A DNA stretch of 43,985 nucleotides from Patescibacteria group bacterium. GTDB taxonomy: Bacteria; Patescibacteriota; Minisyncoccia; Phycocordibacterales; SBAW01. Under the pieces are notes generated by a model that made no database searches, had not been told where the DNA came from, and saw only the letters and a list, made by a program, of their open reading frames with translations. The stretch is from contig JAGWIT010000002.1 in the NCBI GenBank assembly GCA_028866155.1, positions 1 to 43,985 on the forward strand, given 5' to 3'. The translations under genes and the position numbers were made by a program. Positions 18,479 through 19,744 of the stretch are shown here, piece after piece. Every line of letters begins with the position of its first letter. Position 1 is the stretch's first letter.

Positions 18479-19744
18479 ATGCGGCCTGTAAGTTTTTCGA
18501 TCGACGAAGAAGGTCCGGGTCTTGCCCGCGCGGGCGTTATCACGACGCCGCACGGCTCAATTAATACGCCCGCCTTTGTTGCCGTCGCCACCAAGGCCGA
18601 TATTAAAGGGATTTCAGTGTCGCAATTTAAAGAGCTGGGAGTTCAAACGGTTATAGCCAATACCTACCACTTATACTTATCGCCCGGCGAAGAGCTGGTC
18701 GACAAAGCGGGCGGGGTGGGGGAGTTCATGGGCTTCAGAGGTCCCACGATGACCGATTCGGGAGGGTTTCAGGTATTTTCTTTAGGCGAAGGGTTTGGCA
18801 AAAAACTTTCAAAATTTTTGCCGCAGGAGCAGGCACCGGAGTCTCCTGCAGTGAGCGCTGCGAGCGGCCAAGGGGAACGGAGGGAGACTCCGGTGCCTGT
18901 TATTTTTGATGAAGATCTCGCGACAAGCCACGGCAAGCTCGCAATAGTCGACGAAGAAGGAGTGTCTTTTACCAGCCACCTCAACGGCACTCTGCACCGC
19001 TTCACGCCCGAGCGCTCGATAGAAATACAGCACAAGCTCGGCGCCGACATTATATATGTTTTCGACGAATGCACGTCCCCCGCGGCAGAGCATGGGTATC
19101 AAAAAGAAGCTGCCGACCGGACTCACCGGTGGGCAGCGAGGAGTTTAAAAGCGCACCGCGGGAATATCGGCAAAAATAACCGGCAGGGGATTTATGGCAT
19201 CGTGCAGGGAGGCCGCTACGCGGATCTGCGCATCGAGAGCGCGCGTGAAATCGCCTCAATGGATTTCGACGGCTTTGGCATCGGCGGTTCGTTCAGCAAG
19301 CGCGATATCTTGGGGATTTTAGACAAAGTAAACAGGGAACTGCCAAAAGAAAAGCCGCGCCATCTGCTTGGCATCGGCGAGCCTGAGGATATGTTCATCG
19401 GCGTTGCGGGCGGCATCGACACTTTTGACTGCGTCTTGCCGACACGCAACGGCCGCACCGGCGGGATCTATACGCGTCACGGCAAAGTGCAGATTCCCAA
19501 CGCCGAATTTAAAGAAGATTTCTCGCCGCTCGACTCGGAATGCGATTGCTTCGTATGCCGCAATCATACGCGCGCCTACGTTCATCATCTTTTTCGCACC
19601 AAAGAAATGCTCGGCCCCGTTTTGGCGAGCGCTCATAATATCCGCTTTCTCACCCGCCTGTGCGAGCGAATGAGAGAGTCGATTTTAAACGGCGGCTTCG
19701 GGGAATTCCGCGATTCATTTTTAAGTTCATACAAAATACGCTAA
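18479..19744 (+). CDS. tgt: tRNA-guanine transglycosylase (queuine tRNA-ribosyltransferase family)
   Basis: 421 aa with [42 protein letters not shown] and the zinc motif CDCFVC..H. Confidence 0.9.
18829..18900. repeat. Hairpin element, family B, in frame inside tgt (17-bp perfect arms with a 36-nt core)
   Basis: caggcaccggagtctcc (18830-18846) pairs with ggagactccggtgcctg (18883-18899). The core is tgcagtgagcgctgcgagcggccaaggggaacggag, and its reverse complement recurs in uvrC. Confidence 0.85.

Follow-up and report, generated by a model that had tools for sequence, protein, structure and literature searches.

An in-frame hairpin insert in tgt belongs to a palindromic repeat family with a near-invariant core and variable, paired arms in Paceibacteria-like bacteria

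The tgt gene on a 43,985-nt stretch of Patescibacteria DNA (assembly GCA_028866155.1, contig JAGWIT010000002.1, positions 1 to 43,985; hereafter the window) contains a hairpin that lies in frame within the coding sequence for queuine tRNA-ribosyltransferase. The insert is a copy of family A, a multi-copy palindromic repeat of Paceibacteria-like bacteria of the candidate phyla radiation (CPR), and the family is best read as a newly described relative of the palindromic in-frame repeats exemplified by the Rickettsia palindromic elements (RPEs). The search space comprised public CPR (Paceibacteria-like) genomes and metagenomes, with assemblies from NCBI, ENA, JGI and Logan. The original prediction, made from the letters of the window, had proposed a small duplicative element tolerated in frame in a housekeeping gene. 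Both halves of this proposal are supported: 34 copies were found in at least nine assemblies, by a genome-collection scan and at loci reached via Tgt relatives, and the 23 genic ones occupy six gene sites in a single reading phase, with the copy in the window Tgt falling in a variable loop that AlphaFold models as unstructured.

The window holds two copies. The host gene of copy 1 (positions 18479–19744, plus strand, 421 aa), delineated from its open reading frame (ORF) and translation, was identified as tgt by PF01702 and by the TGT names of its homologues, and the protein matches a TGT in the PDB with E = 4e-94. The names of the closest Tgt homologues mark the window organism as a Parcubacteria/Paceibacteria-like bacterium. 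Copy 1 occupies positions 18829–18901 on the plus strand. Its left arm CAGGCACCGGAGTCTCC (18830–18846) and its right arm (18883–18899) are exact reverse complements over 17 bp around a 36-nt interior, and a G/T wobble at 18829/18900 extends the stem, just as the first reading of the letters had described. The paired unit, including this one G·T pair, thus spans 72 nt (18829–18900), and the insert amounts to 24 codons, as predicted; however, the unit does not begin on a codon boundary, because 18829 is a third codon position and the 24 in-frame codons (QAPESP..PVPV) cover 18830–18901. The central 24-nt core GAGCGCTGCGAGCGGCCAAGGGGA lies at 18853–18876 on the plus strand. Its near-invariant 17-mer (18857–18873) is a T>G variant that is also present at the tgt site of two other loci, L012 and L103 (the stretches of 2.6–21 kb used for comparison are denoted by L numbers), and the CCGGAG of the left arm is likewise found again in arms at the tgt site of other genomes.

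Copy 2, also 72 nt long, lies at 25135–25206 with its core on the minus strand, inside uvrC (24761–26077, plus strand, 438 aa), a gene assigned by alignment and by the GIY-YIG, UvrC_M and UvrC_RNaseH Pfam matches of its orthologues. Its arms (25135–25153 and 25188–25206) form a perfect 19-bp stem, or 22 bp at 95% identity, around a 34-nt loop; the central 24-nt core, in minus-strand letters GAGCGCTGCGAACTGCCAAGGGGA, occupies 25159–25182, the 17-mer 25162–25178, and the uvrC translation at this point reads ..SVPLGSSQRSLQQ.. The reverse complement of the 36-nt tgt centre does recur at 25153–25188, with 32 of 36 identities by hand count, and a 32-nt pattern of the centre has exactly two matches in the window, the expectation from 100 shuffles being 0.00. 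The claim that the arms of the two copies are unrelated survives for the outer arms (6/17 identities, chance level) but not for the inner ~13 nt, of which 10/13 are identical by eye in the core-anchored register. When the 72-nt units were folded, both hairpins proved far more stable than shuffled sequences on either strand (z = -4.2 to -4.7; 0 of 200 shuffles as good). The tgt segment is indeed long in comparison with known Tgt proteins: the solved Z. mobilis TGT has 3 residues where the window protein has 52 (query residues 104–155), and the segment is therefore lineage-specific; many close Tgt homologues lack it.

A scan of 185,579 species representatives, one genome per species, with the query AGCGCTGCGANNNGCCAAGGGGA returned 17 matching stretches. 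Sixteen of these come from five CPR metagenome-assembled genomes labelled Saccharibacteria, Paceibacterota or Adlerbacteria, the only ones in the collection with the exact family-A core, and all sixteen are hairpins whose exact midpoint is the core, with equally long spacing to either side. The remaining stretch, from Olsenella (L016), lacks long arms and was set aside as an apparent chance match. A scan of viral contigs for the core gave no match. Three close relatives with the same synteny (L018, L019 and L020) have no family-A copy within 12–21 kb. A search of the whole window against Rfam 15 at the gathering threshold yielded five tRNAs only, and in the tgt region at E <= 10 only generic miRNA-shaped hairpins matched, far below threshold. 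We found no description of such hairpin elements in CPR bacteria in the literature.

Each of the 34 copies is a hairpin of 68–80 nt (mode 74–78) in fixed register, with a 24-nt centre and arms of ~24 nt, and 28 of them form a core-anchored, gap-free alignment (A3). The 17-nt core GCTGCGAGCTGCCAAGG, which contains GCTGC-GA-GCTGC, is invariant or nearly so, and the positions flanking it define sub-variants (GAGC..GGGA; TCAC..GTGA, pairing with each other). At each distance between 9 and 23 nt from the core, no fewer than 22 of 24 copies are paired; pairing reaches out to 23–25 nt and is at background level by 26–28 nt. Since it ends at a constant distance from the core, the size of the unit is fixed. 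The share of paired cells in the named structure is 91%, compared with 43–50% in slid controls. Changes on both sides were seen for 24 of 25 pairs, and one A:T pair is invariant in all 28 copies. The arms follow a purine-rich consensus in fixed register that carries little sequence information (~0.2–0.5 bit in the outer columns). The arms are nonetheless part of the element. The original contrast between a shared loop and locus-specific stems proves general, but the stems have a fixed register and a weak consensus, so that the unit is the whole of ~74 nt and not the loop alone. The copy in uvrB of L011 and L101 illustrates how differently the two parts evolve: 6 of 22 arm positions differ, all compensated, the core is identical in 24 of 24 positions, and 29% of the four-fold synonymous sites of uvrB are different. 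Arm divergence at about the synonymous rate, fully compensated, next to an identical core indicates that the arms are near-neutral but held paired and that the core is strongly constrained.

About one third of the copies are intergenic, located in short spacers that adjoin stop or start codons and in some cases separate divergent genes, and about two thirds are genic. All 23 genic copies are in frame. The tgt site is occupied, at the DNA level, in the window, L011, L012, L017/L026, L101, L103, L104 and L105 and, at the protein level, in the Tgt homologues P0008, P0013, P0016, P0024, P0052 and P0063; the uvrC site in the window, L011, L014, L101, L103 and L105; the uvrB site in L011 and L101, with two adjacent copies each, and in L105, with one decaying copy; and the tsaD site in L005, L008 and L010. 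Two further ORFs contain the other genic copies. Every genic copy is read in one physical frame, giving SAASxQGE when the core is in sense orientation and PLGSSQRS when it is antisense, and in-place inversion interconverts these two readings. Such constancy of phase at several independent gene sites favours read-through and selection on the peptide. Stop codons in the other frames were considered as the cause of the single phase but do not settle the matter, since several genic copies lack stops in all six frames. AlphaFold models the window Tgt with confidence except for residues 96–152, 57 residues with a predicted local distance difference test score (pLDDT) below 50 that include the insert, and this low-pLDDT segment is missing from solved TGTs. 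The in-frame copies occupy variable surface loops and are read through in one tolerated phase. The paired uvrB copies (L011 4201–4358 and L101 12584–12741) belong to different sub-variants, stand side by side with opposite core orientation and add ~50 residues to the protein.

The tgt insertion site is a hot spot for several hairpin families. Across 120 Tgt homologues (P0001–P0120, 71–80% identity), the insertion loop corresponding to window positions 18800–18910 has either a short form, LPEEAAREAGVAVYDEEL, or recurrent insert peptides, which, besides those of families A and B, include GQNGLVE..TRGPFGRE, GHESASPKEREEK and GSASPQPDHFVRE, among others. Family B is a second set of hairpins, with core TCCGGAGAGATGAACGGGA(G/C)CCCAACTCC, present in the window at 14683–14761, where it abuts the ATG at 14763, and at ~15602–15675, where it overlaps the 3' end of a VKOR gene between convergent genes. 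Its core lies in frame at the tgt site of L019, L020, L021 and L028, in two reading frames and both orientations, encoding the peptides GRDEHDPNS, FSGEMNG and SRAPVHLS.

Comparison of orthologous loci reveals that the centre of the hairpin can be inverted in place. In the orthologous intergenic loci L002 and L004, which are 85% identical over 3.9 kb, the arms and local flanks are almost identical, and the centre is exactly reverse-complemented. Further centre flips were seen in tsaD, in tgt between L011 and L101, at the first uvrB site between L105 and L011/L101, and between sister Tgt proteins. A neighbour-joining tree of Tgt with the insert masked was too star-like for gains to be dated and was used solely to pick out sister pairs whose centres are flipped. 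The outer arms match at 11–15 of 17 positions between most orthologues and at 5–9 of 17 between most loci of one genome, whereas the 28 variable positions around the core behave in the opposite way, with 22–26 matches among loci of one genome and 13–20 among most orthologues. In this mosaic, the outer arms follow the locus by vertical inheritance and the central region is largely genome-specific. Some copies, namely L009, tgt of L104 and uvrB of L105, carry several mismatches and are decaying.

The level at which the hairpin matters can be approached through the orientation of the core and the strand of its mismatches. Among 17 genic copies tallied, the core is in sense orientation in 9 and antisense in 8. 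Read on the core strand, 19 transition mismatches at variable arm positions are G·T and 5 are A·C (p = 0.007); counted along the whole arms on the mRNA sense strand, the two kinds are equal (12 versus 12). Equal composition of the arms on both strands, together with the presence of both core orientations in one co-oriented gene cluster, makes a mutational artefact unlikely. The mismatch bias follows the strand of the core and not the orientation of the gene, which is evidence for a hairpin of single-stranded DNA and against an element of the mRNA. Most simply read, the hairpin matters when one particular strand of the DNA is single, and not in mRNA.

From the distribution of the copies we infer that family A is mobile. 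The explanation that we favour, with modest confidence, is an RPE-like repeat that acts as a strand-specific single-stranded DNA hairpin, with a loop recognised in trans, and that persists as near-neutral selfish DNA. The element would act at the DNA level, as a hairpin of the core-sense strand displaying the core in its apical loop, and this loop would be the probable recognition site of a trans-acting protein, for example, a nuclease or recombinase specific for hairpins, of the HUH type or another. New loci would be founded by insertion of the whole unit; hairpin-templated or template-switch synthesis, together with short-tract conversion starting from the identical core, would keep existing copies perfect, flip them and make them partly uniform, with a neutral or near-neutral effect on the host proteins. 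More tentatively, and with a distinctly lower probability, the hairpins may be stable "landing pads" whose apex is a strand-specific single-stranded DNA module that is copied, flipped and exchanged between pads by hairpin-targeting machinery. If so, the process would resemble flip/flop terminal resolution or cassette exchange on internal chromosomal hairpins, and it would constitute a mobile system without terminal repeats, target duplication or a gene of its own that recodes surface loops of essential CPR proteins.

Several observations weigh against the selfish single-stranded hairpin that we favour. No transposase or nuclease domain was detected with Pfam in 30 window ORFs, and NCBIfam showed nothing relevant in 10 more; neither a RAYT gene (for REP-associated tyrosine transposase, where REP stands for repetitive extragenic palindrome) nor an invertase was seen among the window ORFs scanned for domains. 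No split core, that is, half-cores around a longer parent element, was present in ~1.1 Mb of DNA, and the viral contigs scanned contained no copy of the core. Flanking direct repeats are absent from 23 of the 34 copies and 1 nt long in 7, which is chance-like and reveals no consistent target-site duplication. We found no precise empty site: the nearest hairpin-free relative, L018, differs by 15–16 residues at both sites, not 24. The long retention of a perfect hairpin with an invariant core at orthologous sites would be expected of a host-beneficial element and not of a decaying selfish insert, and the G·T/A·C asymmetry is based on only 24 events. The split between centre and outer arms also has exceptions, since the tgt copies of L017 and L012 match at 22 of 28 central positions and the outer arms of uvrC and the first uvrB copy within L011 at 11 of 17. 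Finally, the window, L012 and L103 have a CGG core variant in common at the tgt site, which suggests that the centre was inherited vertically there and that homogenisation is incomplete. A 5-nt direct repeat, AAAGA, surrounds the uvrC hairpin of the window in its extended 78-nt form (25127–25214); this is the only one of the 34 copies with a repeat longer than 2 nt, and the repeat is probably there by chance.

The main rival is a host-functional, cis-acting DNA site, used for loading or recognition by a replication, repair, recombination or nucleoid protein and kept by selection, with its genic position incidental. We consider this rather unlikely, although several findings suit it: the core stays invariant next to synonymous sites that diverge by 29%, pairing survives many compensated changes, orthologous positions are kept across genomes whose Tgt proteins are only 70–80% identical, a function of this kind would not depend on orientation (9 versus 8), and window scans found no transposase. 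However, the family is patchily distributed, missing from 12–21 kb of L018, L019 and L020 and present with an exact core in only five of 185,579 species representatives, and the same tgt site is used by other families, by the family-B core in DNA and by recurrent peptide families in proteins. The decaying copies at L009, uvrB of L105 and tgt of L104 speak against it as well.

Alternatively, only the ~24–36-nt centre might move, the arms being either an inverted duplication of the flanking target or pre-existing palindromes into which the centre lands. In this case, the outer arms would be locus-specific and common to orthologues whatever the centre, as they are; similar outer arms, CCGGAGAAGGAA, enclose a centre of family A at the L012 tgt site and an unrelated one at that of L102, and the left arm of the window copy begins with CAGGCA, a match to the hairpin-free tgt of L018. 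Yet the arms are fixed in register and length, with pairing that ends at 23–27 nt in most copies, and the invariant A:T pair and the purine-rich consensus across unrelated loci are not expected of an arbitrary target. Perfect palindromes of 17–26 bp are also unlikely to have existed beforehand inside tgt, uvrC, uvrB and tsaD, and we therefore regard movement of the core alone as improbable.

Still less probable is an element of RNA, be it a processing site for RNase III or another enzyme, a stabilising or attenuating structure of the mRNA, or a small RNA. The very strong covariation of the stem, the preference for G·U-compatible mismatches on one strand and the A-run and T-run that flank some intergenic copies in the manner of a bidirectional terminator are what such an element might display. 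The preferred strand, however, tracks the core and not transcription (G·U and A·C are even, at 12 each, when read on the mRNA sense strand), both core orientations are found at the same gene site, intergenic copies lie between divergent genes and against start codons, no Rfam family matches, and the constant reading phase implies that the segment is translated rather than removed. An intrinsic terminator in particular, which would have a short G+C-rich stem and a T run after it, downstream of a gene, was rejected in view of the 24–36-nt loop and of copies that lie within genes, in spacers of divergent genes and next to start codons. That there is no real element, only a chance palindrome in ancestral coding sequence, a chance match or an assembly artefact, can practically be dismissed, given 0.00 expected matches of the centre, the same architecture in assemblies from all four sources, the existence of intergenic copies and the lack of the segment in many close Tgt homologues; sequencing adapters and amplification chimeras were dropped because the element occurs at orthologous in-frame sites in assemblies of several sources.

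Other hairpins are found in the window and its relatives. In uvrB, a 69-nt imperfect in-frame hairpin (21085–21153), with arms GGCGAAGTCTGCT and AGCAAACTTCGCC and a 43-nt loop, lies at the site that holds two family-A copies in L011 and L101. Its loop has TCGGCGT.CA.GTCCAGCAA (peptide GVHVQQ) in common with a segment beside the tsaD copy of L005, and it may represent a further family. In-frame palindromes built on AAAGGTC(A/T)GACCTTTG (peptide KGQTF) are present in atpG (36535–36579; 45 nt, equal to 15 codons, as a 21-bp perfect stem closed by a 3-nt loop) and in a mgsA/rarA-like gene (12883–12935), and related pairs of AAGG(T/A)C..G(A/T)CCTT palindromes occur in L005, L012, L014 and L019, and also in frame in UvrB of L012 and UvrC of L014 (QGPSLxQGAKGRSL). 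In the N-terminal part of atpG, two 24-nt segments form an imperfect inverted repeat (75%) across a 56-nt spacer (35971–36074), and the region folds strongly (-59.9 kcal/mol over 150 nt). An 8-residue insert in uvrB, AHSTGSGQ (20387–20434), is shared with L019, missing from other relatives and has no present hairpin potential. Leader and trailer of the tRNA-Pro(CGG) gene (31189–31260) lengthen the acceptor stem by ~10–13 bp, giving a 20-bp inverted repeat at 95% (31176–31271). L014 (602–691) has a 17-bp inverted repeat that agrees in its inner CGGGATG but not in its outer bases and encloses 56 nt of closely similar sequence; a precursor structure that is conserved is thereby suggested.

CPR genomes are among the smallest and least understood. 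A recent survey ranked the Parcubacteria phyla first among all phyla in the density of perfect inverted repeats, although the nature of these repeats was not stated (PMC13155455). Family A gives an identity to part of this signal, namely short hairpin repeats that lie even inside essential genes. Its pattern of conservation is the reverse of that of REPs and MITEs (transposable elements of the miniature inverted-repeat type): the loop is invariant, the paired stems are free to vary, and the centre flips and is partly genome-specific, which points to a novel transaction on DNA hairpins. The family offers a tractable case of selfish or structural DNA shaping protein loops, bears on the annotation of CPR genomes and on protein-family alignments, and provides a defined 17-nt single-stranded motif as a handle for seeking the binding protein.

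Among known systems, RPEs, which measure ~150 bp, share the most with family A: both are short palindromic repeats of bacteria with reduced genomes, inserted in frame and compatibly with the fold in unrelated housekeeping genes and read through as a conserved peptide, with several families per genome and no known transposase (PMC10969869). Family A differs in its size of 72–76 nt (68–80 nt over all copies), in having only a 17–24-nt apex conserved between arms that are locus-specific but paired, and in its Patescibacteria hosts. RPEs are conserved along their whole length. We know of no report that they flip their centres in place or that several families re-use the same gene sites. REPs and REPINs with RAYTs, and the hairpin ends of IS200/IS605 elements, are likewise many-copy chromosomal hairpins with probable strand-specific handling of single-stranded DNA in trans and compensated pairing, but REPs and REPINs have a conserved stem with a GTAG or CGTC tag, a variable loop, an extragenic location and a RAYT gene (PMC3733652, PMC3116915, PMC3337134). 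Membership of family A in this class, which calls for a conserved imperfect palindrome of 20–40 nt, was rejected, given arms without a conserved tag, about two thirds of copies in genes, and a conserved loop on free stems. A MITE was also excluded by the lack of conserved terminal inverted repeats (outer arms match at only 5–9 of 17 positions between most loci of one genome) and of target-site duplications, and an integron attC site, which has conserved R and L boxes in its stem, a variable middle and a place beside cassettes and intI, by the reverse pattern of conservation, with an invariant centre and variable stems in family A, and by the housekeeping-gene context.

Perfect inverted repeats within translated genes of small genomes are also known from the coding palindromes of Nematomorpha mitochondria (PMC6649704) and the hairpin elements of sponge mitochondria (PMC2800124). 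Organelle hairpin elements resemble family A further in their conversion-like spread without a known transposase and in a GC-rich centre against an AT-rich background, which in family A applies to the AT-rich relatives. The GC clusters of yeast mitochondria are another organelle parallel. These elements belong to other sequence families, however, and none has been described with an invariant apical core on locus-specific arms. In the terminal hairpins of parvoviruses and poxviruses, an asymmetric centre occurs in two reverse-complement orientations (flip and flop) between constant stems; these hairpins are the ends of linear replicons and are inverted by nicking and hairpin transfer in each round of replication, whereas family-A hairpins are internal to the chromosome and their flip is seen only between genomes. 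Intragenic invertons consist of a segment flanked by inverted repeats within a gene, which occurs in both orientations and thereby recodes a few residues. Family A, too, has a centre flanked by inverted repeats that is found in both orientations between orthologous loci, but it forms a dispersed repeat family, and its 24–36-nt spacer is too short for invertase synapsis of duplex arms.

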